A stretch of 64,000 nt of DNA. It comes from Patescibacteria group bacterium. Lineage in GTDB: Bacteria > Patescibacteriota > Patescibacteriia > UBA1558 > GWA2-36-10. The DNA lies in NCBI GenBank assembly GCA_041665545.1, contig JBAYIQ010000001.1:222448-286447 (forward strand), given 5' to 3'. The notes under the pieces were generated by a model. The model was given only the letters and a program-made list of their open reading frames with translations, did no database searches and was not told where the DNA came from. Shown one piece after another: positions 14,367 to 56,977 of the stretch. The stretch's first letter is position 1. The number at the start of each line of letters is the position of its first letter. Position numbers and translations under genes: made by a program.

Positions 14367-15044
14367 TTACTTTGCTAAACAAATTGGTGTAGATAAATAT
14401 TCTAATATATTAATTTTACTATACTTCAGTGAAAATTGATCTATTGAACACACGGCGATTTCAGTTTTTCCATCTAACTCAAAATATTTCACGAACCATT
14501 TTTTAGATTTTTCTCTATAGCCAATCTTAATGTTATTTTTTATTCTAACAACATTAACCTCCTTTAGCGAAATATTTAGACCACATCCTATTGCCTTACA
14601 GTAACTTTCTTTAGCAGTCCATAATTTGCATAAAGACAATTTTGTATCAACCTTACTAAAATAGTCCCGATCCGATACAAAAATAGATTTAGTTTTTGTA
14701 TTTATTCTTTCTATCTCTTCTATATCTGCTCCAACAAGATCTTCGCCCAAAACAAGAACTCCGTATTTGTCATTATGTGAAAAATTAAAATAATACCCCT
14801 TCTGTTTTCTGAAGAATGGTTTTCCAAATTCATTGGTTATTATTTCATCATTGTCATATCTTAATCTATAATTTTTATACATAAATTCTCTGAGTAAAAA
14901 ATCGTCAATAATAGCTGTGCATTTTTCTTTATAAGTCCACTTTTGTAAAATACTCTTTTTTGAATAGTCTGAAGTATAATTCAAAAGATTTCTGTAAATA
15001 TCTGATGGGATGTTTACTTTTTCGTATAGATATAAATAAACCAT
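14367..15044 (-). CDS. 4'-phosphopantetheinyl transferase, Sfp type
   Basis: 225 aa with PPTase motifs FNFSHNDKYGVLVLG...GADIEEI and WTAKESYCKAIG. Confidence 0.7.
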   Translation of the reverse strand: MVYLYLYEKVNIPSDIYRNLLNYTSDYSKKSILQKWTYKEKCTAIIDDFLLREFMYKNYRLRYDNDEIITNEFGKPFFRKQKGYYFNFSHNDKYGVLVLGEDLVGADIEEIERINTKTKSIFVSDRDYFSKVDTKLSLCKLWTAKESYCKAIGCGLNISLKEVNVVRIKNNIKIGYREKSKKWFVKYFELDGKTEIAVCSIDQFSLKYSKINILEYLSTPICLAK

Positions 15045-15090
15045 AATTACGTGGGGCTATAATATTATTTTAAAAACCAACCAATCGTCT

Positions 15091-15711
15091 TTATGTATGT
15101 TTTGTATTATTTAAAAGAATGAACCTAACTAAATTATTAAATATTTCCATTCCTTCATTTTGAGGACTTATATTTTCTGGGTGAAATTGAAAGCCAAATT
15201 GTTGTTTTCCTTGAACTTGGATAATTTCACAACCATCAATAGAACTAGCCAGGCAAACAAGAGTTTCTGGAATTTCTTGAACCCCAAATCGATGTTTTTC
15301 TGAGACAGTATAATCATTTTTATTTTGAAAAATTGAATGTCTGGCTTTGGCTGTAATTTTTACCAAACCTTCTCGTTTCTGAGATAATTTAACTAATTTA
15401 GCACCATAAGCATAACATAAAACTTGAAACCCATAGCAAATACCAATCACCGGAATAGAGGTATTACGAATGAGTTCAATCTCATCGATGTTTTCCGAAG
15501 CATTTAAAGAATGACCATCTGATAAAATAATTAATTGACAATCATTAAGGTCACAATTTTTTATATCTTGAAACATAATGTTTCTAACTTTATATCCAGT
15601 TAACAAAGTAACGTATTCGCTTAGCGAATCTGCGCCGTTATCAATCAATGCTACATTTACCGAAGCGATATTCCTTTCTGTTGTATTATAATTTTCTATC
15701 ACTTGTCTCAT
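15091..15711 (-). CDS. Class I glutamine amidotransferase, stand-alone (PabA/TrpG-like fold)
   Basis: 206 aa. Catalytic triad context GICYGFQ (Cys) and FQFHPE (His, Glu). Confidence 0.65.
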   Translation of the reverse strand: MRQVIENYNTTERNIASVNVALIDNGADSLSEYVTLLTGYKVRNIMFQDIKNCDLNDCQLIILSDGHSLNASENIDEIELIRNTSIPVIGICYGFQVLCYAYGAKLVKLSQKREGLVKITAKARHSIFQNKNDYTVSEKHRFGVQEIPETLVCLASSIDGCEIIQVQGKQQFGFQFHPENISPQNEGMEIFNNLVRFILLNNTKHT

Positions 15712-15713
15712 AA

Positions 15714-16625
15714 TTATATTAAATTATTAAATAATATTGAAAATTTTTCTACGCATCCTGGATTAAATATTGAAAAATGATCTCCCTTAATAGGATGAAT
15801 CTTTATGGGATGTTCTGAATATAAATTCCACTCATACTTTCGTTTAACGGGGCTATCATTCGCCTCGAAAAAATGAATATCAGCATTGACCTTACGTGCA
15901 GGCATATAAAATGCCTGAGCATTTGCATCTGTCCTCATAACATTCAAATAGTAAATCAGATCGCGAAAACTAATATTATCAAAATATGGAATTGCCTTAG
16001 CCCTGTCTTCGGGAATATCCTGCTTAATAACCTCCATCAAAGCACTTTGATATTTAGACATACCAAACATTTCAACAAAAATCTTCCACATATGTTCTTT
16101 ATTGTAACATAATTCATTGTTTATATTAGTAGACTTGATTTGTGATAACCACTTATGAATTAATATTTTTTCTGTCCCCAAATCAAAGCGTGACTTTTTA
16201 TTTGGATTTTTATTCGGTTCAAGTAATGCATAATCATTAACCATGTTTATCATCTGTTTGTCATCAATAATTGGTGGCGCAGAATTAATTATCGACAAAA
16301 AATCAATTTTTTCACCAATTGATTCAAGTTGTAATGCAATTTCAAATGCCCTCACCCCTCCAAAACACCAACCTGCCAATAAATATGGCCCACAGGATTG
16401 AATTTTTTTAATTTGCTTCAAATAAGATCTTGCCATTGACGAAATAGATCTATTTTTAGGAGAAAAATCATTAAACCTATCGGCTCTTAACCCCCAACAA
16501 TTTATTTCCGATGAAAAAGATGAGCAAAACAAAACATAATGCTGAATTTCACCATTTCCTGCGTGAATTAAAAATAAATTTTTATTTGAATTCGTTCCCT
16601 TTTTGAGAAAAACGACATTATTCAT
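15714..16625 (-). CDS. Type II thioesterase-like alpha/beta hydrolase with a Cys in the nucleophile position (GWCFGG instead of GxSxG)
   Basis: 303 aa. The pattern LFLIHAGNGE ... GPYLLAGWCFGGVRAFEIALQLESIG matches the thioesterase-domain consensus GPYxLxGxSxGGxxAxExAxxLE, but with Cys replacing Ser. Confidence 0.65.
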   Translation of the reverse strand: MNNVVFLKKGTNSNKNLFLIHAGNGEIQHYVLFCSSFSSEINCWGLRADRFNDFSPKNRSISSMARSYLKQIKKIQSCGPYLLAGWCFGGVRAFEIALQLESIGEKIDFLSIINSAPPIIDDKQMINMVNDYALLEPNKNPNKKSRFDLGTEKILIHKWLSQIKSTNINNELCYNKEHMWKIFVEMFGMSKYQSALMEVIKQDIPEDRAKAIPYFDNISFRDLIYYLNVMRTDANAQAFYMPARKVNADIHFFEANDSPVKRKYEWNLYSEHPIKIHPIKGDHFSIFNPGCVEKFSILFNNLI

Positions 16626-16626
16626 T

Positions 16627-18456
16627 TTATTTTTGGTTTTTAATTATATACTCAGCTTGTTTTTCTATTGTAGGTAAGTTTATAATATCATTAATGGCGA
16701 CATCAATCTTGAATTTATTTTGTAATTCTAAAGCCAATGAAGTCAACAATAATGAATTTCCGCCCACCTTGCTAAATTCTGTCTTAGTACCACAAACATC
16801 AATATTTAACAATTTTTTCCAAATTTTTACTATATTACGCTCTACTGCATTCTTTGGTTTAACATTTTTTTCTTCTCCAAAATTAGGTTTAAAGGTATCC
16901 ACAATAAATTTTCGATCAATCTTTCCAGTGGCGGTTAATGGCACGCTGTCAAGTTGATAAAAATAAGTTGGAATCATATAAGACGGTAATGTTTTTAGCA
17001 AATATTCTTTTATTAAATCTGAACTTACAGATTTATTACCCTTAGTAGTATAGTAAGCAATAATTTGAGATTCTTTTTCTTCGTGTATAATCGGCATCAC
17101 AACACTCTTATCAATAAAATAAAAATTATCTATTACGGATTCAATTTCATTCAATTCTATTCTATACCCTTTAATTTTAATTTGAAAATCATTCCTTCCC
17201 AGAAATTCAATCGGCCCACCAACCATTTTCCTACCCAAATCTCCTGTCTTAAATACTCTGCCTCGCTTCGTCACTGGATCAGTTATAAATACCGCATTAG
17301 TCTTTTCTTGCTGATTTAAATAACCTAACGCAAGATAATCGCTCTTATAAACTAACTCGCCAATTTCACCATTTTTGACCTCCCGACCATTATTATCCAA
17401 AAGATACACTTTGGTATCTTCTACCGGATAACCAACGGGAACGGTAGCCTGATTTATTTTGGTGGTTTTATCAATAAAGTACTGCAGAGTAACTGTGGAT
17501 TCAGTTGGCCCCAATCCATTAATAAAAACGCAGTTATCATTGAAATGCAATTTATAAGCTTCAACATCATTTATTAAAACTGACTCTCCTCCCATTACCA
17601 CCAACCGGACACTATCCATTAAATTTTTTTCCTTTATATTGCTAATAAAATAACGATATAAGGTTGGAACTGAGTGAAAAATAGTTATTTTTTCTTTTCC
17701 AATCCAAGCGGTTAATTTTTCGACTGCACCTAATTCCTTCATGTCGTAAGGATACAATGTTGCCCCATTTAATAAGGCACCAAAGATATCCATAATAGAT
17801 GCATCAAAACCATATGTTGAGAATAAGGTAAGTTTATCAAAGGGACTAATTTCTAGATTATTAGTATACGTACGGATAAAATGTAAAACATTGCGGTGAT
17901 TTTGAATAACACCCTTTGGTTTTCCTGTTGATCCTGAAGTATATAATATATAAGCACATTGAGAAGGGTCTATCATTATCCCTAAATTTTTCGCTTCTTC
18001 CTCATTATCAAGTTCATCCACATTAATGATAAAAACCCGCTTATTTGGCAAATCAATCGTGAGACTTTTGGCTAAATTATAGTTAAGATTATTGGTCAAA
18101 ATAATATCCCCACCTGAATCAGAAACTATATACTCAAGTCGATCTAACGGATGAGCAGGATCAAGAGGAACATAAGCATTCCCTGATTTAAGAACAGCTA
18201 TAATTGCAATAATCATTTGAAAATCATGTTCGAATAATAAATATACTCGCTGAGAAATTCCTTCTTTATTGTACTTTAATATTTGATTGGCAACTATATT
18301 CGCTTTATTATTAAGCTCTTGATAAGAAAGGACACGAGTCTTAGTTACTATAGCATTCTTAATTGAAAAATCGGCAACCTGATTTTCAAATCGGGTTACT
18401 ATGGATTGATTTATTTCTTCTTTAGGAAATTGATTATTATTCTTATTTATTTTCAT
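16627..18456 (-). CDS. Stand-alone NRPS-like adenylation plus peptidyl-carrier (A-T) didomain protein
   Basis: 609 aa. Adenylation motifs A3 YTSGSTGKPKGV, A4 FDAS, A5 NGLGPTESTV, A7 FKTGDLG and A8 GRNDFQIKIKGYRIELNEIE, plus a C-terminal carrier motif FSKVGGNSLLLTSL (phosphopantetheine-binding Ser). Confidence 0.85.
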   Translation of the reverse strand: MKINKNNNQFPKEEINQSIVTRFENQVADFSIKNAIVTKTRVLSYQELNNKANIVANQILKYNKEGISQRVYLLFEHDFQMIIAIIAVLKSGNAYVPLDPAHPLDRLEYIVSDSGGDIILTNNLNYNLAKSLTIDLPNKRVFIINVDELDNEEEAKNLGIMIDPSQCAYILYTSGSTGKPKGVIQNHRNVLHFIRTYTNNLEISPFDKLTLFSTYGFDASIMDIFGALLNGATLYPYDMKELGAVEKLTAWIGKEKITIFHSVPTLYRYFISNIKEKNLMDSVRLVVMGGESVLINDVEAYKLHFNDNCVFINGLGPTESTVTLQYFIDKTTKINQATVPVGYPVEDTKVYLLDNNGREVKNGEIGELVYKSDYLALGYLNQQEKTNAVFITDPVTKRGRVFKTGDLGRKMVGGPIEFLGRNDFQIKIKGYRIELNEIESVIDNFYFIDKSVVMPIIHEEKESQIIAYYTTKGNKSVSSDLIKEYLLKTLPSYMIPTYFYQLDSVPLTATGKIDRKFIVDTFKPNFGEEKNVKPKNAVERNIVKIWKKLLNIDVCGTKTEFSKVGGNSLLLTSLALELQNKFKIDVAINDIINLPTIEKQAEYIIKNQK

Positions 18457-18794: not shown

Positions 18795-21605
18795 CTAAGA
18801 CTGCATTTCTTCTTTATTCGGCTCACCGCCACTGACTGGTATCACAAACTGGAAAATACTCCCCTTTTCTTTGCCAGCACTCTCTACCCATATTTGACCA
18901 CCATGCTCTTTGATAATCTTCTGAGCGATGAATAAGCCCAAACCAGAACCACCAGTGTGAATCTGCGCCGCGCCACTAGCGCGCACAAATTTTCTAAATA
19001 AATTTTTGGCTTCCTCGGGGTCTATACCAATACCAGTATCTTGCACTTGGAAATGAAAATTTTCACCTTCAATAAAAGCGCTAACTTCAATCTGCCCTTT
19101 GGGCGTATATTTTATGGAATTATCAATCAAGTTCAAAATCACTTCGCGCAATTTATCAGAATCAGCGGCCACCAATGGCAAGGCCGGCTTTGATTTTTTG
19201 TAAATCAACTTCACGCCTTTTTTGTCTGACTCATTGTGTAGCTCGGCAATGACACTATCAATCATGTCGCTAATCTGCAAGGGCTTTTTTTCTATTTTTA
19301 ATCTTCCGGACTCAATGCGCGACACATTCAAAAATATATTGACCAAGCGAGCCAAGCGAGCGGCGCTTTCAAATAAATCTTTGATTACTTTGCCAACTTT
19401 TGGCGTTACCGGCCCAAAATCTCCATCAGAAATCATAGACAAGTAGCCCTTAAGCGCTGAAATTGGTGTGCGCAACTGGTGAGAAGCAATGGACAAAAAC
19501 TCTGATTTGGCTTGATCCAACTCGCGCAAGCGCATATTAGCAATTTGCAAATCTTGATTGGTTGTTTGTAAATTATTATATAAGCGCAAGTTTCTGGACA
19601 CAATGCCCACTTGGCTGGTCAGAGCCGTCATGGTGTCTAAATCCAGTGAAGTCACTTTTGATTTTTCTACAGCCAACAAAAAATGAATAATACCAATTAT
19701 TTTATCTTCCGAAAAAATTGGAAAGCCAACTATTGCTTTGACCCCCAAGGCCTCCTGCACTTTATCCATGACCAACTTATCAACTGGAGGTGAAAAGAAA
19801 TCCGACATTTTGTCAGAATCATTTCTTGTTCCGGATAATACTGTCTTGACGCCCAAAGAATAGCCCGCCTCTAATTTGGCTTCAAACTTTTTGGGATCCT
19901 GCCCCAAAATTTGCGTCACTAGTTTAGTCTGTTCACTCTCTGTGATTGCCCCAATACGTAAAACATTGGTTCGCTCATCCACAAAGCTCAAAACACCACC
20001 TACATAGCCAAACTCAGAATAAATACTGTTAGCAATCATTTGATTAATCTGCTTGAGGTCCATGGTGCGACCTACTTTATTGGTCACGGCCTGCATGGCT
20101 GTCAAAAACTTATTGCGTTGTTCTAGACCTACATTTGCTATTTTTAAACTTTTTGTCTTAGCATCAACCTTGACTTGCAAGTCACGCTTTTGTAACTGAA
20201 CTTCTTCGTAGAGTTTGGACTTCTCAATTGCTGTGGCAATTTGGGGAGTCAAAATTTTCAAAAAATTAATGTCGTCTTGACTGTAAAGATCGCCAGAGCT
20301 TTTTGCAGAAAAAAATAACATTGAAGTTAAACTCCCATCTTCTCCAGAAACGGGAACTATCATCTCTATTTTTAAATTTTCTGCCTCTTGAATAAAATTA
20401 CCTAAAATTTTATAATAAGGAACTTCTGAGCTTATATTACTATGGTCTCTTATTAATTCCTCAACGATAATAAGTTCCTTTTTATTTATGATAAATTGAA
20501 TAAAATTTATATTAAACTTTGGAGGGGCACTATCTAGTTGAGAGCTGGCTATTAATATCCATTCCCCATTTTTTAATATTAATGACGAAATTAATCTAAT
20601 TTTTAACTGATCAGACAACAAATTGACTAAAGCCAATGAAAATTTAGCCAAATCAATCTCTTTGGCAACTACCGAACTAGCTTTCTGAAGTAACTTCTGA
20701 TAATCTACCCTGTTCTTATAAAATATACGGTCGGTCAAACGAGCAAAAATACTCTTCAAGGGGTCAAGAGTCAAGACGATAACTAAAGAAGTTACAACAA
20801 AAATTATTGCATTGCCGGACTGGTTTTCTCTGCTCAAGTATGTTCCTGATAAAAAAACCACCATTGCAAAAAATGATGCAAACAAAGCTACCAAAATTCC
20901 GTATAAAACACTTCTAATCAAAACTAAACGAATGTCCATTAATCTGTACTTAACAATCGCATATGTGGTAAATCCTACCATGAAGATAGTTAAAACTTGC
21001 CCAGACCAATTAATTGTGAAAATGCCAAACCAAGGTAACAATAAATTAGATATAAAAGCTAAATTGCTGGATAGTAAATAACCAGAAAAAACATATTTTA
21101 CCTGCAATTTTTTTAACCCCTCAAGTTTTTTAATCTTACTATTAAGATTATAAAAAGCTTGAAAAAAGTGGTAGAAAAAATAAACTACATACAAAATATA
21201 CAACTTACCAAAATATATAATGTTTTCACCGTCAACAACTGTTTTAGCACTAAATATAATTCTATCCGTAAAAAGAATCATACCGTTTATAAGTATAAAA
21301 AAAACGGATACAAATATTATGTATTTCGGGTTAAGTTTCCCGCCCTCTGGAAAAACGATTGAAAAAAACAAAAAAGCTGGTGATGTAAACGTCGCAAACA
21401 CATACAATAGTTTGCATAAAAAAACTATATTAGCTTGATCAGAAAGTCTATACAATATCATCCCTGTACCCCAAAATATAATAGCTACAATAACAAATAA
21501 ATAACTTCTATTTACGGATGCATGTTTATTATTTTTATATATAAAATAACCTAATAATATATTAAGGATAAGTACAACTAAAATGATTATATTAATGTAA
21601 TCCAT
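18795..21605 (-). CDS. Sensor histidine kinase with N-terminal multi-TM (HisKA_7TM-like) domain, GAF-like region, HisKA and HATPase_c
   Basis: 936 aa. N-terminus is multi-pass. H-box EFLSIASHQLRTPISALKGY. C-terminal ATPase G-boxes (GIGIDPEE, GGSGLGLFIAQKI). Confidence 0.8.
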   Translation of the reverse strand: MDYINIIILVVLILNILLGYFIYKNNKHASVNRSYLFVIVAIIFWGTGMILYRLSDQANIVFLCKLLYVFATFTSPAFLFFSIVFPEGGKLNPKYIIFVSVFFILINGMILFTDRIIFSAKTVVDGENIIYFGKLYILYVVYFFYHFFQAFYNLNSKIKKLEGLKKLQVKYVFSGYLLSSNLAFISNLLLPWFGIFTINWSGQVLTIFMVGFTTYAIVKYRLMDIRLVLIRSVLYGILVALFASFFAMVVFLSGTYLSRENQSGNAIIFVVTSLVIVLTLDPLKSIFARLTDRIFYKNRVDYQKLLQKASSVVAKEIDLAKFSLALVNLLSDQLKIRLISSLILKNGEWILIASSQLDSAPPKFNINFIQFIINKKELIIVEELIRDHSNISSEVPYYKILGNFIQEAENLKIEMIVPVSGEDGSLTSMLFFSAKSSGDLYSQDDINFLKILTPQIATAIEKSKLYEEVQLQKRDLQVKVDAKTKSLKIANVGLEQRNKFLTAMQAVTNKVGRTMDLKQINQMIANSIYSEFGYVGGVLSFVDERTNVLRIGAITESEQTKLVTQILGQDPKKFEAKLEAGYSLGVKTVLSGTRNDSDKMSDFFSPPVDKLVMDKVQEALGVKAIVGFPIFSEDKIIGIIHFLLAVEKSKVTSLDLDTMTALTSQVGIVSRNLRLYNNLQTTNQDLQIANMRLRELDQAKSEFLSIASHQLRTPISALKGYLSMISDGDFGPVTPKVGKVIKDLFESAARLARLVNIFLNVSRIESGRLKIEKKPLQISDMIDSVIAELHNESDKKGVKLIYKKSKPALPLVAADSDKLREVILNLIDNSIKYTPKGQIEVSAFIEGENFHFQVQDTGIGIDPEEAKNLFRKFVRASGAAQIHTGGSGLGLFIAQKIIKEHGGQIWVESAGKEKGSIFQFVIPVSGGEPNKEEMQS

Positions 21606-28587: not shown

Positions 28588-29553
28588 TTATATTAGTTCG
28601 CCAATAAAATTCTGTTGGCCGATTTGCTCAAAAGAAGCAATCTTATCCTTGTTGGCCATGGCCCACATGGCCTTGGCCATGGCTGATTCAAAAGTGCAAG
28701 CTGTCATGATTATTGCTTCATCAGGACCGTGTACCTGAATAGGGTGATAAAGAAATACTGGAATTTTAGAATCTTTGATTTGTTTTATTTTGGCTGGCTC
28801 TAGTTTGTTTTGGTGATTGAGCTTGATAAACAAAGCATCATAATTATTCTGTTCAAAATTTGTTAGCCAAGTAAGGCCCGGTAAATCGTCAAAAACAAAA
28901 ATATTGGCTTTGATTTTATTGTAAATCTTTGGTTTTCCAGTGTGATAGCCAAGGCCAGATTTGACGCTAATACCAAAATCTACTCGACCCCAATAGTTAT
29001 CATCAATGCTAGCAAATAAATTTAAGCCCGTATCCTTGTCACAAGTGGCACGCACTCCCGGAATAAGCCGAGTGCCAAACATAATAGCTGGCGTAGGCAA
29101 ACTGTAATCCAACACTTGAAAAGCATTTATTAAATTGGAGCGCAAACCCAAATCGTTTTTTTGACCAACAATATTTTTGCTTAGCTCAGCTGTGCCACTA
29201 CGAATGGCTGAGGTCAAAACCACTGTCTTTTTTATATTCTGCAGTAAAAAACTTAAGGCGTTGGCCGTCATTAATAGCTGGTCTGAGCGCGAAACAACCA
29301 CAAAACCACTGCTAGAGTCCAAGCGTTCAGCAATCTGCTTGGCCATTTCTTGCCAATGTTCCGGTGTCAAAATACTGTCTTCTGGGGCAATAAAAATCGG
29401 CTCCACTTCGGCTAATAACCTAAGCTCGGGCATTTGCTTGAGCCAGATTTCAATATCATCAGGACTCTGGATAGTAAGCAACCTTTTGTTCTGATCAAGT
29501 AAAGCTGTGCCACCAGCCAACAACAAAGTAATTTTTTTTCTTACTTTAGTCAT
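28588..29553 (-). CDS. L-asparaginase/GatD-like family protein; probable start at the internal Met (MTKVRKK)
   Basis: Motif LLLAGGTAL resembles the asparaginase TGGT signature. The first 13 residues of the track ORF overlap the upstream gene. Confidence 0.45.
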   Translation of the reverse strand: MTKVRKKITLLLAGGTALLDQNKRLLTIQSPDDIEIWLKQMPELRLLAEVEPIFIAPEDSILTPEHWQEMAKQIAERLDSSSGFVVVSRSDQLLMTANALSFLLQNIKKTVVLTSAIRSGTAELSKNIVGQKNDLGLRSNLINAFQVLDYSLPTPAIMFGTRLIPGVRATCDKDTGLNLFASIDDNYWGRVDFGISVKSGLGYHTGKPKIYNKIKANIFVFDDLPGLTWLTNFEQNNYDALFIKLNHQNKLEPAKIKQIKDSKIPVFLYHPIQVHGPDEAIIMTACTFESAMAKAMWAMANKDKIASFEQIGQQNFIGELI

Positions 29554-30241
29554 TGATTTTTTCTTTAGGAGAAATAATAAAACCAAAAACAACTAGATTA
29601 ATAAATAGAGTAAATAATGGGCCCATGTGAATGGAAGTAAAATTATCTTTATACATGGAAAATAGATTAAAGTAACTACCAAAAGCAGTACCCATGATAA
29701 CTCCGAATAAAACCAAGCCGATTTGGGTTCTAAATATCCCGTCTGATTTTATATATTTATCGACTAGAAAATAGATTGCTGAAAAAATTACTAAAACCAT
29801 GAAAATAGTATATATTATATAACCAGCATTATTATAAGTTGCAAAATTTATTGATCCAATTCGGACGCTATCTACAAAATAATTGTAGCCAAATATAGTA
29901 TATATAATAATTAAAATACTAACAATATTTATTAACCATTTAAATAATTTATTTATTTGAATTTTTTTATAAGGAAAATAGAGAGAAAAGTAGAATAAAA
30001 AAACTATAACTAACCAGGCCATGGTGTATGGTAGACTAGAGAAAAATCTCAAAGCATCTTCGCTTAAGCTAATATTATAAAAAACTAAGCTAGCAGACCA
30101 GAGAAAAACAAAAAATGTCATCAAACTAAAATATAAATTTATTTTATTTTTTTGGCCACGAAAAAAAACAAACAAACTCATGCCTAAATTTGTCAAACCA
30201 GTAATTGATAAAATTAAATTTTGTGAGTCAGTTAAAATCAT
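29546..30241 (-). CDS. Stand-alone 7TM sensor-like membrane module, tandem paralog 1 of 3
   Basis: 231 aa multi-pass membrane protein sharing the N-terminal pattern (GL.NL.M.FFVF.RG..NKINLYF.L.TFF.F.W) and C-terminal ISPKEKI with the two neighbours and with the N-termini of 31671-33056 and the kinase at 18795-21605. Confidence 0.6.
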   Translation of the reverse strand: MILTDSQNLILSITGLTNLGMSLFVFFRGQKNKINLYFSLMTFFVFLWSASLVFYNISLSEDALRFFSSLPYTMAWLVIVFLFYFSLYFPYKKIQINKLFKWLINIVSILIIIYTIFGYNYFVDSVRIGSINFATYNNAGYIIYTIFMVLVIFSAIYFLVDKYIKSDGIFRTQIGLVLFGVIMGTAFGSYFNLFSMYKDNFTSIHMGPLFTLFINLVVFGFIISPKEKIND

Positions 30242-30245
30242 ATCT

Positions 30246-30944
30246 TTAATTACTTATTTTTTCTTTAGGGGAAATAACAAAAAACACAACTATGAAATTC
30301 ATTAAAACCGTAAAAATTGGGCCAAGCCAATCAAACCTATAATCATTAAAATATTCAATAAATAAATCAAAATAACTCCCAAATGCCAATCCAATAATAA
30401 TCGCAAACAACAACATTTTAATTTGCTGCTTTACCACGCCCTCTGCCAACTTATATTTTCTGAATAATTTACATAAAGCCCAAACTGCCACTATAACAAA
30501 ATAAACGGCATAAAGAAAAAATCCCGCCTCATTGTAATAAGAAATATACTCATAATTGCTATAGGCCCTAACCGTCTCCGTGATAAATCCCTTGGTATAA
30601 ATAAAAAATGATAAAATTATCGCCATCAATAAAATAAGAAAATGATAACTTTTTTTTAGTTTTTCAATTTGGTAGGGAAAGTGATGAACAAAATAAAATA
30701 AGGAAATAACAATTGCTAACGCGGAAACATAAGTGCTCCTAGCAAACAAACCAACCAAATTTATATCTGAAATCGAGCGTGAGATTAATAGTCCCAAACT
30801 CCAAGTAAAATTAAAAAAGGTCAGTAAACTAAAATATAAATTTATTTTATTTTTTATACCTCGTCTAAAAACAAAAAAAGTCATAAACAAATTAACCAGA
30901 GCAGCAATCAATAAAATAAAATTTTGAGTTGAAAAAATTATCAT
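30246..30944 (-). CDS. Stand-alone 7TM sensor-like membrane module, tandem paralog 2 of 3
   Basis: 232 aa. Same architecture and conserved termini as paralog 1. Confidence 0.6.
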   Translation of the reverse strand: MIIFSTQNFILLIAALVNLFMTFFVFRRGIKNKINLYFSLLTFFNFTWSLGLLISRSISDINLVGLFARSTYVSALAIVISLFYFVHHFPYQIEKLKKSYHFLILLMAIILSFFIYTKGFITETVRAYSNYEYISYYNEAGFFLYAVYFVIVAVWALCKLFRKYKLAEGVVKQQIKMLLFAIIIGLAFGSYFDLFIEYFNDYRFDWLGPIFTVLMNFIVVFFVISPKEKISN

Positions 30945-30948
30945 ATCT

Positions 30949-31644
30949 TTAATTACTTATTTTTTCTCTAGGGGAAATGATGAAATAAAATACTACCGCA
31001 TTCATAAACAAAGTGAACACCGGACCAAACCAAGCATAATGATAATTAGCAAAATAACAAAGTATCAAATCAAAGTAAGCGCCAAAAACCAAACCTATCA
31101 AAATAGCAATAAATAATATTAAAGTTTGTTTTTTGAAATAAATGTCTGGCATTTTAATTTTGCGATACAAGTTTAGTAGAGCTAACCCAGCCACAAAAAT
31201 AAAATAAACCCCATATAAAATATAAAACGGCTTGTTTACATACAGCGTGTATTCATTTCTGGCTAAATCTTTGGTAAAGCTCAATACAAACGCTCCTTTT
31301 GTATAAACGATTATTGATAAAATAAAGGCTGGGGCTAAAAGCACCAGATCATAAATTTTTTTATTTTTACTAGTTTGTAATGGAAAATATTTGGAAAAAA
31401 AGTAGAGCGACAAGGATATCCCCAAGGCAATGGGATAAGCCAAAAGTGCTCCGCCATAAAACCAAAAGTTAATATTTTCACCCATTCGAGCAATCAATAT
31501 TGTCATGGTCCACAGAAAATTAAAAAAAGTAAGCAGACCAAAATACAAGTTTATTTTATTATTAAAACCACGGCTAATAACCACAAAAAACATCATTAAA
31601 TTAACCAAGCCCGCAATCAATAACAATAAATTTTCTATACTCAT
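30949..31644 (-). CDS. Stand-alone 7TM sensor-like membrane module, tandem paralog 3 of 3
   Basis: 231 aa. Same architecture, ending ISPREKISN. Confidence 0.6.
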   Translation of the reverse strand: MSIENLLLLIAGLVNLMMFFVVISRGFNNKINLYFGLLTFFNFLWTMTILIARMGENINFWFYGGALLAYPIALGISLSLYFFSKYFPLQTSKNKKIYDLVLLAPAFILSIIVYTKGAFVLSFTKDLARNEYTLYVNKPFYILYGVYFIFVAGLALLNLYRKIKMPDIYFKKQTLILFIAILIGLVFGAYFDLILCYFANYHYAWFGPVFTLFMNAVVFYFIISPREKISN

Positions 31645-31670
31645 ATTTATTAATTAATATTGAAAAATAA

Positions 31671-33056
31671 TTATTTTTCTTCCTTATTAGCCATGGCCTG
31701 CTGATAAAGCAACAAACTGCCAATGGCAATATCCAAATATTTGTTCACTTCCTTCAAAAAATCCAGTTGCTGTTGGTAAATCAGCTTTTTATTGTTATCC
31801 AGCATGACTACTCCCAAAAGCTGATTATTATAGTATATTGGGAAAGATATGTCAATATGATGATTAACCAGCTCTTGGCTCAGCTGGGGATCAAGCCCCA
31901 AGTAGTGCACTTCTGGACTATGAAGTAAATCTTGATTTTTAGCCAAATATTTTAAAAGCAAATCCTGCTCCATGTGCAGTGTGCGCTCGCCCACTGGAAA
32001 TACTTGGTGGAAAAAATTAGCATCCCCACGCTTGGACAAATAAATAAATATTTCTTTGTAATCAATCACTTGGGCAATTTCTTTGGACAGTGATGACATC
32101 AATCTATTGAGATCACGACTAGAGCGCAAGATCACGGCAATATTATTTTGCGCTTGAATTATTCTCTCCAAAGGATGATAAATAAAAAACTTAGCCGCCA
32201 CACTGGCTAGACCAAATAAAATAGGTGCGGTCAAACCAAAAAATATCAAAAACAAAATACTATTTATGCTGCGAGAAAAATCCACCTGTACTGGCCCGCT
32301 GAGTACTAAATACAGCAAAGCATAAACCAAGCCAGTCAAAAGCAAGCGCACCAAGTTGACCAAGGTTTTGTAAAAACTTATTTTCAAATCCAAAAAGCGG
32401 TAGCGAAACAAAGCATACACCACAATAGCGGTAAATATCACGCTACTATTAACTCCCAGATAATAAAACTCCACCACTCCCAAAAGTGGTAAGAAAAAAA
32501 TAAAAATCAAAGCCGAGATAGCGGTCAAAGCCGTGGCCACAAAAATATAGTCAATTTGCTTTTTGACTATCTGATCATAGCGACTGCGCTGACGAATCAA
32601 CACTACCAGGCCCCAAGACATGAGGGTGAGAAAATAGGCCGCAAAATAAAAATAAATCGGCCCTGGTACATAAGCGACACTGTTTTGGCCGACGACAATA
32701 CTGCTGACATTATATTTGCTAAAAACAAAGGGCGACATGATATAAGCGGGCAAGAAAAAAAGATGCTGTTTGCTGCGAACTTTTTTCCAACCATCAACCA
32801 GTAAGTAGCTAAGCCAGACAAAGACCGGGGCAATATACAGTGTTGGCAATAAACCAGCGCGCACTCCCAGTAGCAAGGATTGACTGCGTAATAAAAATAA
32901 AATATTAAACAGTTCACTGCTCTGCCATAGCCACAACAAAAAAACCATGATGAAAATTGGCCAGCGCCTTTGCTTATTTTTGTTGAGGAGTATAAAAAAC
33001 AACAAGCCCAGATTGATCAGCCAAACTACTGCTAAAATTAAAGTATCTAGTGTCAT
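31671..33056 (-). CDS. 7TM sensor-like membrane domain fused to a C-terminal GAF-like cytoplasmic domain; no kinase domain
   Basis: 461 aa. Multi-TM N-terminus related to the three tandem paralogs, with a roughly 160 aa soluble C-terminus. Confidence 0.55.
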   Translation of the reverse strand: MTLDTLILAVVWLINLGLLFFILLNKNKQRRWPIFIMVFLLWLWQSSELFNILFLLRSQSLLLGVRAGLLPTLYIAPVFVWLSYLLVDGWKKVRSKQHLFFLPAYIMSPFVFSKYNVSSIVVGQNSVAYVPGPIYFYFAAYFLTLMSWGLVVLIRQRSRYDQIVKKQIDYIFVATALTAISALIFIFFLPLLGVVEFYYLGVNSSVIFTAIVVYALFRYRFLDLKISFYKTLVNLVRLLLTGLVYALLYLVLSGPVQVDFSRSINSILFLIFFGLTAPILFGLASVAAKFFIYHPLERIIQAQNNIAVILRSSRDLNRLMSSLSKEIAQVIDYKEIFIYLSKRGDANFFHQVFPVGERTLHMEQDLLLKYLAKNQDLLHSPEVHYLGLDPQLSQELVNHHIDISFPIYYNNQLLGVVMLDNNKKLIYQQQLDFLKEVNKYLDIAIGSLLLYQQAMANKEEK

Positions 33057-33091: not shown

Positions 33092-33120
33092 AATATAGAG
33101 TTTTTGGGATTATTTGTCAA
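33092..33120 (-). promoter_or_regulatory. Sigma70-type promoter for 31671-33056
   Basis: Minus strand reads TTGACA, a 17-nt spacer, then TATATT, about 35 nt upstream of the ATG at 33056. Confidence 0.45.
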
Positions 33121-33145
33121 ATAGAAAAATCAACCCGACGAGTTG
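33118..33145 (-). terminator. Terminator-like hairpin downstream of the tRNA locus
   Basis: Minus strand has caactcgtcgggttg followed by atttttctattt. This hairpin is related to the hairpins at 33584-33598 and 60758-60772. Confidence 0.4.
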
Positions 33146-33445: not shown

Positions 33446-33570
33446 GTCAAGAAAATAGGTATGCCTCCAGTACCAAGAACTAGAGCTTGTTTATTATCTA
33501 GAGTCAACTAATACCACATCTCGCCCCGTAGCGACCCAGCTCCTCGCGAGGAGTTGGGTCGCTTATGGGG

Positions 33571-33598
33571 TCAAATACAAAAACAACCCGACGGGTTG
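33571..33598 (-). terminator. Rho-independent terminator for the aminotransferase gene
   Basis: Hairpin caacccg-t-cgggttg followed on the minus strand by tttttgtattt. Confidence 0.55.
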
Positions 33599-41773: not shown

Positions 41774-41884
41774 CGTCATCCCGCACTCCCGCCCGACACG
41801 CCTGACGGCAGTCATGGCGGGCGGGTGTTGCGGGATCTAACTAGAAATATATAAATACTAGATTCCCGCCTGCGCGGGAATGAC
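41774..41884 (-). repeat. MITE-like inverted-repeat element, copy 1 (reverse orientation, with a GC-rich insertion)
   Basis: Its reverse complement matches copies 2 and 3: gtcattcc(c/t)gcgcaggc(g/a)ggaatcta ... agatc(c/t)cgcaa ... tgcgggatgacg. Copy 1 carries an extra nested GC hairpin, cccgcccg...cgggcggg. Confidence 0.7.
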
Positions 41885-41911
41885 AGATAAATAAAAAGAT
41901 TGTAAAAAACT

Positions 41912-52521: not shown

Positions 52522-52549
52522 AAATAGCCGAAAACTATTTTTTTATTAC

Positions 52550-52622
52550 GTCATTCCTGCGCAGGCAGGAATCTAATTTTTTGTACATGTTAGCTAGATC
52601 TCGCAATAAATGCGGGATGACG
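52550..52622 (+). repeat. MITE-like inverted-repeat element, copy 2
   Basis: gtcattcctgcgcaggcaggaatcta...agatctcgcaataaatgcgggatgacg, with terminal inverted repeats GTCATTCC/GGGATGAC and two internal hairpins. Confidence 0.7.
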
Positions 52623-53810: not shown

Positions 53811-54021
53811 ATTATTTAAAAATCGCTGACCGTAGCATCATCCTGAACTTGGTTCAGGATCTCCTAATAACTAAAGTAAATTGGAGATGCCGAAATAAAT
53901 TCGGCATGACGGATAAGATCAGTGATTTTTTATTTTTCCCAAAAAGAAAAGGGCTCGGAACTCTCACCGCGGATGGTGAAAAAATTCCGAGCCCCAAGAG
54001 CCCTAGGCCCGAAGGCCCAGC

Positions 54022-54783
54022 TTACTCCCGAAAGGCCGGCACCGCCCACTCGTCGCACTGACTGCCAAGGTGAAAGGTGCGCAGCCAGAACTGACGCATA
54101 TCAGCATCCCAGCCGAAACACGGCACGAACTGCCAGTCTAGAAAGATGGGGGCGCAGGCCTCGTAACCAGGCAAGAAGACATAGGGAATATCCTTGCCGT
54201 TCATGGCCGACACCCACTTCGGACTGTAGTAAGCCATCCAGAGAATGGCCGCGGCCGGAGACTGGACAGAGTCGCGCACGTCCACGGACTTGCGGTTCTG
54301 GTTGGCACCCAGATCCACGATGCGCCACTTGAGACCTCGGCTGTGCTGACCCGAAAGCAGACGCAAGTGCTCGGAATCGGACAGAAGCCCACCCAAGCGA
54401 CTACTATTCGGCTGCTTGCTGGCGGCCAGCTGCCAGGCCGTATCGAAAGTCCGTTGAACGGTGTCCAAACAGACCTCCAGTATGACGACCGTCAGACGCG
54501 TGGTGTTGGCAGGCACAGGAGCCTGACCGAGCTTGATGAAATCCTCGTCGGTGAAGCCCCAGCAGTGCTGGACGTTAAGCACCTTGACCATGGAAAGCTG
54601 CTGAGCCGGGGTGGCGAACATGCCGTGGATGAGGTCGCACTCGAAGCCGCGACCCTCGACGATGCACTGCAGTTGATCGATGGTTGTGTTGAAGAGAATC
54701 GTGCCCTGATTGGCACGCCGCTTCACCTCGTCCAGTCTCCTGTCTAGTACTCTGTACTGCTCGTCGGACAATACGCTCGTCAT
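54022..54783 (-). CDS. Hypothetical protein in a GC-rich islet
   Basis: 253 aa from ATG 54783 (MTSVLSDEQYRVLDRRLDEVKRR...) with AAGGAGGG 6 nt upstream. Local GC is far above background. Terminator hairpin ggctcggaa/ttccgagcc at 53953-53994. Confidence 0.5.
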   Translation of the reverse strand: MTSVLSDEQYRVLDRRLDEVKRRANQGTILFNTTIDQLQCIVEGRGFECDLIHGMFATPAQQLSMVKVLNVQHCWGFTDEDFIKLGQAPVPANTTRLTVVILEVCLDTVQRTFDTAWQLAASKQPNSSRLGGLLSDSEHLRLLSGQHSRGLKWRIVDLGANQNRKSVDVRDSVQSPAAAILWMAYYSPKWVSAMNGKDIPYVFLPGYEACAPIFLDWQFVPCFGWDADMRQFWLRTFHLGSQCDEWAVPAFRE

Positions 54784-54903
54784 GACAAGCCCTCCTTTTG
54801 ATATTTTGCTGTTTTTTAGTATTTGGCTTATCCAAAACACCAAAAAACAACGGTTGTGAAAGAACAATATAATATATAACTTTTTAATAATTTTGTCAAT
54901 ATC

Positions 54904-54932
54904 TTACAAAATAAAATAATATGCTGTATAAT
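54904..54932 (+). promoter_or_regulatory. Sigma70-type promoter for the thrS leader
   Basis: TTACAA, 17-nt spacer, TATAAT. Confidence 0.5.
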
Positions 54933-54938
54933 TATTTT

Positions 54939-55108
54939 TGCTTTAGACGATTGGAATAGCTACCAACTATCCCCCCTACTAGGGTGCCTGCAAGGCCTAA
55001 GTCTAAACCTAATTGAGTGTCCTCTTTTTTGGGGAAACTTGGGTGGAACCACCCCTCGACTCGCTACGCTCGCTCGGGGTCCCAAGACAATCTGTCTTGG
55101 GTTATTTT
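54939..55108 (+). promoter_or_regulatory. T-box riboswitch-like leader with Thr (ACC) specifier upstream of thrS
   Basis: T-box-like sequence AACUUGGGUGGAACCACCCC at 55036-55055 (compare consensus AAUUAGGGUGGNACCGCG). A 7-nt UGGAACC bulge is flanked by helices CUUGGG/CCCAAG and ACCCC/GGGGU, matching antiterminator architecture. The competing terminator cccaagaca-atc-tgtcttggg plus ttatttt lies at 55081-55108. A candidate specifier gcuACCaac is at 54959-54967. Confidence 0.5.
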
Positions 55109-55119
55109 AATTCTTTAAT

Positions 55120-55191
55120 GTCATTCCTGCGAAGGCAGGAATCTAGAATATAAAATTATAAACTAGATCCCGCAACAAGTGCGGGATGACG
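55120..55191 (+). repeat. MITE-like inverted-repeat element, copy 3
   Basis: gtcattcctgcgaaggcaggaatcta...agatcccgcaacaagtgcgggatgacg. Inserted between the T-box terminator and the thrS start. Confidence 0.7.
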
Positions 55192-55228
55192 GCAAATAAA
55201 AAACTTAAATAAATTATAGCAAAAAAAT

Positions 55229-56977
55229 ATGAAAAACTTAGAAGAAATTCGACACTCGCTGTCGCACATCATGGCTATGGCTGTTCTCAAAAAGTTTCCT
55301 GATGCCAAGCTTGGTATTGGACCAACCATTGACAATGGCTTTTATTATGATTTTTTGCTGAGCGAAAAATTATCTGACACTGATTTACCAGAAATAGAAA
55401 AAACCATGCAAGAGCTGATCAAGCAAAACATTGAATTCAAAAAAACTATTGTTACTCGCGAAGAAGCTTTACAGAAAGTAAAAACTCTAAAACAAAATTT
55501 CAAAGAAGAGTTGATAAATGATTTACCAAAAGAAGAAGACATTATTTTTTATCAATCCGGTAATTTTGAAGATCTGTGCGCTGGACCACATATCAAAAAT
55601 TCCAAAGAAATTCCCCTTGATGGCTTCAAGCTCACACACTTGGCTGGCGCTTATTGGCGCGGTGATGAAAAAAATCCCATGATGACCAGAATTTATGGTT
55701 TGGCTTTTACTAATAGAAAAGATCTGGCCGTGCATTTAAATATGCTGGAACAAGCCAAGCTTCGCGATCACAGGAAACTAGGAAAAGAACTTGACTTATT
55801 TGTCTTTTCTGAAATTGTTGGACGTGGCTTACCCCTATTCACTCCCAAGGGCACTGCCATCTGGCAAGAAATGGAAAGATTGGTAATTGAAGAAGAAAAT
55901 AAACGTGGATACTCACGCACCCACACTCCGGATTTGGCTAAAGTTGATCTCTATAAATTATCCGGTCATTGGGATCACTATCAAGACTCTATGTATCCGG
56001 CAATTGATGTTGATGGTGAAGAATATGTTTTGCGACCCATGACTTGCCCGCATCAATTCATGATCTACAAAGCCAAGCCGCGCAGTTACCGTGAATTGCC
56101 CTTGCGATACGCGGAAATTGCCAAACTTTATCGCAAAGAACAATCTGGCGAACTGGCCGGCTTAATGCGCGTCATGTCTTTTTCCTTGGCTGACGCACAT
56201 ATCATCTGTCGACCAGACCAACTAGAGATAGAATTTGAAGCAGTAGTTGAGCTTGTTCAGAGTATTATGAAAACTCTGGGTATTAACAATTATTCTTATC
56301 GTTTTTCTAAATGGGATCCGCAAAATAAAGAAAAATATATTGATAATCCAACGGCTTGGCACGATTCACAAAGCTCCATGAAAAAAATATTGGATAAAAT
56401 GAAGCTTAAATATACAGAAGGTGATGGCGAAGCAGCTTTTTATGGCCCAAAGCTTGATGTTCAAATGCGTAATGTCAACGGCAAAGAAGACACCGCCTTT
56501 ACTGTACAAATTGACTTTGCTTTGCCGGAAAAATTTGACATGACTTATATTGATGTAGACGGCCAAGAGAAAAGACCAATGGTAATTCATCGCTCCTCTA
56601 TCGGCTGTATGGAACGCACCATGGCCTTCTTGATAGAACAATATGCTGGCAATTTCCCGGTCTGGCTATCACCAGTACAAATAAAAATACTAACCGTCGC
56701 CTCTACCCATACTGACTTTGCCAAAAAACTGCAAACCGAATTTTTAGCCGAAGGCATCCGTGTCGAGCTTGACGACTTGGACGAAACAGTCGGCAACAAA
56801 ATCCGCAAAGCGTCTCATGAAAAAGTCCCTTACACATTGGTGATTGGTGACAAAGAAATGGGATCAGACAATTTAGCGGTCCGTGTGCGCGGACAAAAAG
56901 ATTTGCTCAACATCGACAAACAAAAATTCATCGACAAAATAAAAACCCAAATTAAGAATCGTGACCTAAGCTTATAA
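55229..56977 (+). CDS. thrS: Threonyl-tRNA synthetase
   Basis: 582 aa class II aaRS with Zn-binding catalytic core (CRPM...HQFMIYKAK) and C-terminal anticodon-binding domain. Confidence 0.9.
   Translation: MKNLEEIRHSLSHIMAMAVLKKFPDAKLGIGPTIDNGFYYDFLLSEKLSDTDLPEIEKTMQELIKQNIEFKKTIVTREEALQKVKTLKQNFKEELINDLPKEEDIIFYQSGNFEDLCAGPHIKNSKEIPLDGFKLTHLAGAYWRGDEKNPMMTRIYGLAFTNRKDLAVHLNMLEQAKLRDHRKLGKELDLFVFSEIVGRGLPLFTPKGTAIWQEMERLVIEEENKRGYSRTHTPDLAKVDLYKLSGHWDHYQDSMYPAIDVDGEEYVLRPMTCPHQFMIYKAKPRSYRELPLRYAEIAKLYRKEQSGELAGLMRVMSFSLADAHIICRPDQLEIEFEAVVELVQSIMKTLGINNYSYRFSKWDPQNKEKYIDNPTAWHDSQSSMKKILDKMKLKYTEGDGEAAFYGPKLDVQMRNVNGKEDTAFTVQIDFALPEKFDMTYIDVDGQEKRPMVIHRSSIGCMERTMAFLIEQYAGNFPVWLSPVQIKILTVASTHTDFAKKLQTEFLAEGIRVELDDLDETVGNKIRKASHEKVPYTLVIGDKEMGSDNLAVRVRGQKDLLNIDKQKFIDKIKTQIKNRDLSL

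Follow-up and report, generated by a model that had tools for sequence, protein, structure and literature searches.

A 64,000-nucleotide stretch of DNA (hereafter the window) from the Patescibacteria group bacterium assembly GCA_041665545.1 (contig JBAYIQ010000001.1, positions 222,448 to 286,447) contains four short palindromic elements, here designated c1 to c4. The host is a small (~1 Mb) Parcubacteria-like Patescibacteria genome of 38% GC. The elements are very probably (at roughly 0.8) head-to-head dimers, with their tags pointing outward, of the CGTC-tagged repetitive extragenic palindromes (REPs). They are shown here to be non-coding repeated DNA of a hairpin superfamily that spans many phyla and is kept by compensatory change, and to have arrived at their intergenic sites recently in this lineage. 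The repeat class itself has already been described; what is new is the Patescibacteria host, the hybrid dimers of family-1 and family-2 units and the evidence of recent gain. No account of REPs in Patescibacteria was found in the literature library searched. A preliminary description of the same DNA had presented three of the elements (c1, c2 and c3) as copies of a MITE (miniature inverted-repeat transposable element), one of them carrying a nested insertion, in the leaders of essential genes whose expression they might influence.

The repeated unit is a hairpin of about 26 nt, consisting of an unpaired (C/T)GTC tag, an 8-bp stem that opens with an A-T and a T-A pair, a loop of 4 or 5 nt and a short tail. 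In c1 to c3 the layout is GTCAT, a left hairpin ATTCCYGC-GNAG-GCRGGAAT, CTAG or CTAA, about 16 nt of AT-rich sequence, (C)TAG, a right hairpin ATCCCGCA-loop-TGCGGGAT and GAC(G), and both internal hairpins of the preliminary description, ATTCCYGC/GCRGGAAT and ATCCCGCA/TGCGGGAT, are therefore present as it had them. The three copies were confirmed by reading the sequence and by a 26-nt degenerate pattern of the left hairpin, which matches the window only at 41859-41884 (-), 52550-52575 (+) and 55120-55145 (+) and gave no match in 100 dinucleotide-preserving shuffles. The count of three did not stand, as a fourth, diverged copy (c4, with stems CCTGAAC and GCCGAA) was found by scanning for the more general signature TCAT-stem-loop-stem-ATC. 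The window thus holds eight hairpin units, which make up the four dimers; about 1.4 weak matches are expected by chance. Units are 88-96% identical between window copies and spacers 43-67%; units have 50-72% GC and the surrounding intergenic DNA 11-26%. The density amounts to four dimers per 64 kb, all four of them extragenic. Against shuffled controls, the elements fold on both strands with z scores of -3.3 to -6.4 under RNA parameters and of -3.9 to -6.5 under DNA parameters.

The definition of CGTC REPs given by Di Nocera et al. (PMC3733652) comprises a CGTC tag (with variants TGTC or CCTC), a stem of 8-9 bp with A-T residues at the first two positions, a loop of 4 nt in family 1 (to which the Neisseria dRS3 and the Rickettsia RPE-6 belong) or of 5 nt in families 2 to 4, and a short tail, mostly CCA. 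The same text portrays these repeats as multi-copy and extragenic, often just past coding regions, and as mostly arranged in head-to-head dimers whose spacers (20-100 bp, with complementary ends) often differ in sequence but not in length. Among the eight window units, the tag is CGTC in five, TGTC in two and CATC in one, the deviant being the left unit of c4. All eight stems are 8-9 bp long and start with AT, namely ATTCCYGC, ATCCCGCA (in c2 ATCTCGCA, with a T.G wobble), ATCCTGAA(C) and ATGCCGAA. The loops are GCAG or GAAG in left units and ACAAG or ATAAA in right units, and CTTGG in the left unit of c4 (or TTG, if its stem is taken as 9 bp). The window tails are CTAG, CTAA and CTCC; CTAG also ends 23 of the 166 copies recovered from IMG/VR, where CCAG and CCAT dominate. 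The four elements are all head-to-head, with AT-rich spacers of 22-24 nt whose ends are complementary (TAG...CTA or TCC...GGA). The left units of c1 to c3 belong to CGTC-1, whereas their right units, like the two units of c4, are CGTC-2-like; all four elements are heterodimers.

The likeness to families CGTC-1 and CGTC-2 thus covers the tag, the stem opening, the loop class, the predominance of head-to-head dimers, the spacers (similar in length, variable in sequence and complementary at their ends), the extragenic site and the lack of an adjacent transposase (PMC3733652). The differences from that text are several. The hosts of CGTC repeats in the 2013 survey were Proteobacteria, Chlorobi, Bacteroidetes, Spirochaetes and Thermotogae, whereas the host here is a metagenome-assembled genome (MAG) of the Patescibacteria, within the Candidate Phyla Radiation (CPR). 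The window tails are mostly CTAG rather than CCA, three of the four dimers join a family-1 to a family-2 unit, an arrangement that the available text reports only for GTAG repeats, and one unit carries a 38-nt loop insertion, unlike the CGTC families as described there (PMC3733652). The positions of the four elements and their units are collected in Table 1.

Table 1. Positions of the four REP dimers and their parts in the window, with the family to which each unit is assigned.
Feature	Position	Strand	Description
c1	41774..41885	-	Head-to-head REP dimer between rpmE and prfA; orientation opposite to flanking genes
c1 CGTC-1 unit	41861-41885		Tag TGTC
c1 CGTC-2-type unit	41774-41837		Tag CGTC
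c1 loop insert	41788-41825	-	38-nt GC-rich palindrome CCCGCCCGCCATGACTGCCGTCAGGCGTGTCGGGCGGG in the CGTC-2 unit, between AACA and AGTG
c2	52549..52622	+	Head-to-head REP dimer, located past the dnaE terminator and ahead of the promoter-like site of the gene for a 376-aa hypothetical protein (hyp376)
c2 left unit (CGTC-1)	52549-52573
c2 right unit (CGTC-2)	52597-52622		One T.G wobble in the stem
c4	53836..53912	+	Head-to-head dimer of two other CGTC-type units, with stems unlike those of c1 to c3
c4 left unit			CATC tag, then ATCCTGAAC-TTG-GTTCAGGAT
c4 right unit			ATGCCGAA-ATAAA-TTCGGCAT, then GACG
c4 flanking inverted repeat	53818-53829 / 53919-53930		AAAAATCGCTGA / TCAGTGATTTTT, 11-12 nt, then T run
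c3	55119..55192	+	Head-to-head REP dimer within the leader of thrS; 18 nt past the T-box terminator and 36 nt ahead of the thrS ATG
c3 left unit (CGTC-1)	55119-55143		Tag TGTC
c3 right unit (CGTC-2)	55166-55192

Units of the same kind are widespread outside the window. With any base allowed at its three N positions, the left-unit 23-mer GTCATTCCNGCGNAGGCNGGAAT is present in over 120 IMG/VR contigs, whose GC contents range over 39-72%. The free stem positions form Watson-Crick pairs in 162 of 166 distinct copies, with four pair types represented; in 167 of 173 copies GTC follows a C or a T (C in 100, T in 67), and the tail is mostly CCAG, CTAG or CCAT. Altogether, 39 different perfect stems occur among the 373 units of all fetched loci; conservation lies in the tag, the A-T stem base, the loop class and the hairpin as such. 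Dimers in genome loci are head-to-head in 26 cases, tail-to-tail in two and head-to-tail in three. The matches listed include verbatim copies of the right unit (GATCCCGCAA...TGCGGGATGACG) in MAGs from Gastranaerophilales (where copies are numerous), Rickettsiales, other Alphaproteobacteria, Bacteroidetes and Fibrobacter, the scan having drawn on a taxonomically biased sample in which some high-GC matches are chance occurrences inside genes. In those MAG loci, the right unit usually stands head-to-head with a second, different unit.

A pattern scan of metagenomes for the whole element found the window subtype elsewhere only in Ga0172379 (two contigs, L124 and L125). L124 holds a spacer-less dimer, CTAGCTAG, as well as dimers with the same stem pair as c4. 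Because such a spacer-less dimer and single units exist elsewhere, the hairpin unit, and not the 72-bp whole, is the module. Single CGTC-1 units (GTCATTCCCGCGMAGGCGGGAATCCAG) also lie 10-40 nt upstream of start codons in IMG/VR contigs that include L020, L084, L088, L111, L112, L117, L121 and L123; in the phage contig L020, all five CGTC-1 copies are on one strand.

The evidence for recent gain comes from orthologous intergenic regions in relatives, a comparison that had been proposed in the preliminary description. The close relatives (contigs L244, L246, L247/L249 and L248/L250) have a release factor RF1 that is 95-97% identical and share 84-91% DNA identity in aligned blocks, and their flanks align nearly base for base up to the edge of the variable segments. 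No CGTC-1/2 unit was found in ~45 kb of syntenic DNA of these relatives. In L244 the rpmE-prfA spot is vacant, whereas L246 to L248 have a different 85-bp GC-rich palindrome there (in L246 at ~2330-2415, CGAGCGACCCCGAGCAACGTCGAGGGGGAGTCGAG...). The dnaE-hyp376 spacer, occupied by c2 in the window, holds in the sisters an 85-aa free-standing GIY-YIG open reading frame (ORF), located at 12792-13049 in L246, 15107-15364 in L247 and 7497-7754 in L249 and provided with its own promoter-like box, TGCTATAAT. Similarly, the sister spot after hyp376 holds a GTCATTGCGAG...CTCGCAATGACG dimer (L249 8915-9010), and the spot after the T-box terminator a ACCCCCTCT..CTCCCCCTTAAATTAGGGGGAG..AGAGGGGGT palindrome (L249 9929-9985). 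In many loci from phages and MAGs, the GTCATTGCGAG unit is found together with CGTC-1 units. In more distant relatives, with threonyl-tRNA synthetases (ThrRS) 75-76% identical to that of the window, the spacer is short and empty both at the dnaE-hyp376 site and in the leader of thrS. Since the sister genomes are without units at the same intergenic spots, the window copies are recent, lineage-specific gains at fast-turnover spots and not conserved leader RNAs.

Two contigs from two other samples (L002 and L003), which are independent assemblies of the same strain with identical ThrRS, start exactly at TAGATCCCGC of the right unit of c3. De Bruijn assemblers break where a unit recurs, and these breaks therefore suggest that further identical copies of the unit lie elsewhere in the genome. 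The earlier proposal of a small mobile or recombinogenic element is supported by these observations, as the units are more alike than the spacers, the sites in close relatives are without the element and assemblies break at the unit.

The nested insertion in c1, previously put at about 40 nt of GC-rich palindrome expanding the second loop, is exactly 38 nt long and is the sole difference between the right hairpins of c1 and c3. Within the window it is present as a single copy. In L124, one dimer carries a 19-nt insert that starts with the related CCTGTCCGCC at a loop position identical to that of the c1 insert, and another dimer, of the c4 type, carries a 50-nt GC-rich loop insert. Because GC-rich inserts recur at the same loop position in the L124 elements, loop insertion is a recurring property of CGTC-type elements and is not peculiar to c1. 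The insert contains ATGAC..GTCA and was considered as a circularly permuted CGTC unit; this was rejected, as it folds as one imperfect hairpin. In Gastranaerophilales loci (L126 to L240, for example L193 97-151), the loop insert of the CGTC-2 unit has a constant length of 33-34 nt and a highly variable sequence. The insert-bearing unit there follows the pattern GATCCCGCAAGG....C(C/T)G(C/T)TGCGGGATGACG, and the inspected copies lie directly after a hairpin plus T run. RNAalifold gave no inner consensus structure for these Gastranaerophilales loop inserts.

The dRS3 repeat of the Neisseria NIME arrays is a 20-bp inverted repeat, ATTCCC-N8-GGGAAT, flanking repeat units of 50-150 bp. Exact ATTCCCGCGCAGGCGGGAAT is found in c1, while c2 and c3 carry ATTCCT...AGGAAT, and the window has no array organization; unlike NIMEs, its elements are isolated dimers. 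The Neisseria master REPIN sequence, ATTCCCGCGCAGGCGGGAATC, is present in 241 copies in N. meningitidis 2594 and has been tied to a Group 2 REP-associated tyrosine transposase (RAYT) (bioRxiv 10.1101/2021.07.10.451892); Di Nocera et al. name the unit with this sequence dRS3/CGTC-1 (PMC3733652). The left unit of c1 contains this 21-mer exactly, and in both systems inverted pairs form larger hairpins. However, c2 and c3 carry a compensated T-A variant of one stem pair, and the window spacers are not conserved between copies, in contrast to those of Neisseria REPINs. Measured against the REPIN-RAYT system in general, the inverted pair is present here, but a shared spacer is not (spacers 43-67% identical versus 88-96% for units), and no RAYT gene (Y1/HUH, PF01797) was seen in the part of the genome covered. 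The Rickettsia elements RPE-6 and RPE-4 and the Wolbachia repeats are classed as CGTC-1 and CGTC-4 in the available text of the 2013 survey (PMC3733652). The likeness to Rickettsia RPEs and Wolbachia CGTC-4 includes a reduced-genome host, and the window right unit is found verbatim in several Rickettsiales MAGs; Rickettsia RPEs, however, often lie in-frame inside genes, whereas all four window copies are intergenic.

With regard to gene context, Pfam matches give the order rpmE, c1, prfA, prmC around c1, and c4 lies between the hyp376 gene, which is convergent, and a GC-rich gene of 253 aa. Thus, c1 and c3 are within 5' untranslated regions (UTRs), while c2 and c4 are located 3' of genes. The T-box upstream of c3 matched Rfam at 54845-55087 with 33 bits, below threshold, and has the canonical AACTTGGGTGGAACC box; its terminator is at 55081-55101, and the earlier placement of this copy as wedged between the T-box terminator and the thrS start was correct. 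The positions given earlier for the other two copies hold as well, but c2 follows the dnaE terminator and precedes a promoter-like site, so that it is not clearly part of a leader. The right end of c2, ATGACG, followed by 17 nt and TGgTATAAT, scores as promoter-like with ATGACG as the -35 box, which is regarded as incidental. The empty dnaE-hyp376 site of L243 has an ATGACA -35 box similar to this element end; the likeness was judged a coincidence, as the other sites are without it.

In size (72-111 bp), intergenic location and occurrence in several copies, the elements do resemble a classical MITE, that is, a deletion derivative of a DDE-type insertion sequence (IS) moved by cut-and-paste through its terminal inverted repeats with target-site duplication; the GTCAT...ATGAC ends are inverted, and one copy has a nested insertion. 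The terminal inverted repeats of the preliminary description hold only to this extent, as just five terminal bases are perfectly inverted, and beyond them the arms belong to two different self-complementary hairpins whose outer arms match at 7 of 8 positions. No flanking direct repeat, target-site duplication or target motif was found at any of the four copies, no IS or transposase lies within the window, and a spacer-less dimer and single units exist elsewhere. MITE is therefore the wrong label, since long terminal inverted repeats (15-30 bp), target-site duplications and, in the window, a related IS are all missing, and an origin of this kind is highly improbable.

A functional structured RNA, either a cis-acting leader element or a small RNA (sRNA) controlling prfA, thrS and their neighbours through a three-hairpin fold, would account for the stable folds (z down to -6.4), for the position of c1 and c3 inside 5' UTRs and for the T.G wobble on the transcribed strand of c2. 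In addition, the Rfam consensus of FtrB (RF02748), a Francisella sRNA, contains a CGTC-1 unit (guCauuCcCGCGuAGGCGgGaauC) followed by a second hairpin and aligns over c2 and c3; CGTC-type dimers are thus found as transcripts in another bacterium, Francisella. A weak match to Wolbachia WsnRNA46 was also obtained. The spacer and the second hairpin of FtrB differ, however, and the scores (26.4 and 25.7 bits) compare with a gathering threshold of 66, so that c2 and c3 are not members of this family. At gathering thresholds, the only Rfam match in the window is a tRNA, and permissive searching added only the weak T-box, FtrB and WsnRNA46 matches. Further, sisters with ~90% DNA identity and more distant relatives have the same leaders without the elements, c1 is inverted relative to transcription, c2 comes after a terminator and ahead of a promoter-like site, and c4 is flanked by convergent genes. 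The two strands fold equally well, and the tag strand has no excess of G.U over A.C mismatches. A dedicated RNA function is thus very unlikely, and no support was obtained for a conserved function of the kind suggested earlier, in which a leader position in front of essential genes would influence expression.

The remaining alternative treats the units as markers of hypervariable intergenic hot spots whose contents are swapped by homologous or site-specific recombination after DNA uptake, without any transposition. Recombinational swapping has been proposed for the NIME/dRS3 regions of Neisseria. In agreement with such swapping, the same four spots are filled differently in the sisters, by the 85-bp palindrome, the GIY-YIG ORF, the GTCATTGCGAG...CTCGCAATGACG dimer and the ACCCCCTCT...AGAGGGGGT palindrome. 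The segment from c4 to the T-box is a foreign gene of 59% GC, which is replaced by a pilin-like gene in a sister, and the sister thrS has a foreign catalytic core. On its own, this explanation is unlikely, as it leaves unexplained both the near-identical units at four unrelated sites in one genome and the likeness of units across phyla, and still requires a copying mechanism. It complements rather than excludes the explanation by recently spread REP dimers.

As to how they spread, the units would be handled as single-stranded DNA hairpins in trans by a HUH/Y1 (RAYT-like) or other enzyme encoded elsewhere in the genome. This proposal rests on the analogy with the GTAG REPs and their RAYTs and on the claim that the Neisseria unit is tied to a RAYT. 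Alternatively, or in addition, recombination may spread the units by exchanging intergenic cassettes. After their arrival, the units would be passively co-transcribed as stable stem-loops in the 5' UTRs of prfA and thrS and 3' of dnaE and hyp376, where they may incidentally stabilize, terminate or process transcripts. A conserved regulatory role is unlikely because sister leaders are without the elements, c1 is inverted, both strands fold equally and no mismatch bias exists.

Several observations weigh against spread by a dedicated mobilizing enzyme. No transposase or integrase was found by Pfam among 40 ORFs of the window, and a tblastn search with E. coli RayT gave no match in the window and 240 fetched loci (~2 Mb). 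In their survey, Di Nocera et al. report no transposase linked to CGTC REPs (PMC3733652). The spacers differ between copies and are unrelated, which is at odds with the copying of a REPIN dimer as a single piece. In every case the entire stretch from one conserved flank to the other differs from the sisters, and comparison with them reveals no clean insertion at any of the four sites; recombinational cassette exchange is for this reason a serious complement, and cassette replacement may be the real route. Stem mismatches number 11 G.T versus 8 A.C and are without the strand bias that would point to a single-strand-specific mechanism. The copy count rests on 64 kb plus flanks, and the metagenome scan for the whole element returned no source contig.

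The 253-aa ORF between c4 and c3 was considered as a possible mobilizing enzyme and rejected, as it is a homologue of the variable protein of a diversity-generating retroelement (DGR) and is not associated with CGTC units elsewhere. This ORF (54022-54783, minus strand, between c4 and the thrS T-box) has 59% GC in a 38% GC genome, only 12 homologues in a database of 5.8 billion proteins, and matches neither Pfam nor NCBIfam. A canonical DGR targets one of these homologues (L253 5001-5774), which lies beside bAvd and a reverse transcriptase (RT); its variable repeat (VR, 5633-5762) and template repeat (TR, 6211-6340) differ at 17 positions, all 17 at TR adenines. Because no TR copy or RT was found for it in the window, the 253-aa ORF is an orphan or remote DGR target.

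The closest sister thrS (L249 10001-11746, compared with 55229-56977 in the window) is a mosaic, in which residues 1-200 and 480-581 share 85-100% identity with the window protein, and the catalytic core (~residues 200-480) only 28-60% both with the window and with a more distant relative. The sister thus gained a foreign ThrRS core by recombination. Other features of the window include three tandem paralogues of 231-232 aa and a 461-aa gene (29546-33056 and 18795-21605, both minus strand), which consist mainly of the HisKA_7TM N-terminal membrane domain; they show a repeat period of 700 bp and lie near a full 7TM-GAF-HisKA-HATPase kinase. At 14367-18456 (minus strand), genes for a phosphopantetheinyl transferase, a class-I glutamine amidotransferase, a thioesterase and a stand-alone AMP-binding/PP-binding protein (resembling an A-T module of non-ribosomal peptide synthetases) are clustered in this reduced CPR genome. 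In addition, AAAAACAACCCGACGGGTTG occurs three times (33112-33145, 33565-33598 and 60739-60772); its minus strand reads CAACCCGTCGGGTTG followed by a T run, which constitutes a shared terminator-like hairpin (repeat family D6).

Recognition of the elements as CGTC REP dimers removes a false lead, as they are neither a new MITE nor a leader riboswitch, and extends this superfamily to the Candidate Phyla Radiation; with the present data its range also takes in Gastranaerophilales, Fibrobacter and numerous phage contigs. REP hairpins also explain contig breaks in these assemblies, and such hairpins may explain spurious small ORFs in MAGs of this sort as well. To our knowledge, no dedicated transposase has been reported for CGTC REPs since 2013. 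A genome with recent gains beside near-identical REP-free genomes thus offers a favourable setting in which to find the CGTC REP mobilizer, and is equally suited to asking why spots next to terminators keep gaining different palindromic inserts. It is conceivable, though rather doubtful, that after so recent an invasion by CGTC REP dimers the units continue to be copied in this genome. The mobilizing enzyme would then have to be among the few genes that differ from the sisters, or come from a phage or host. The spacers, unrelated but of constant length (22-24 nt), and the recurrent GC-rich inserts at one loop position would in that case reflect a novel insertion mechanism, one that sets a pair of units onto opposite strands with a set distance between them instead of copying a dimer.

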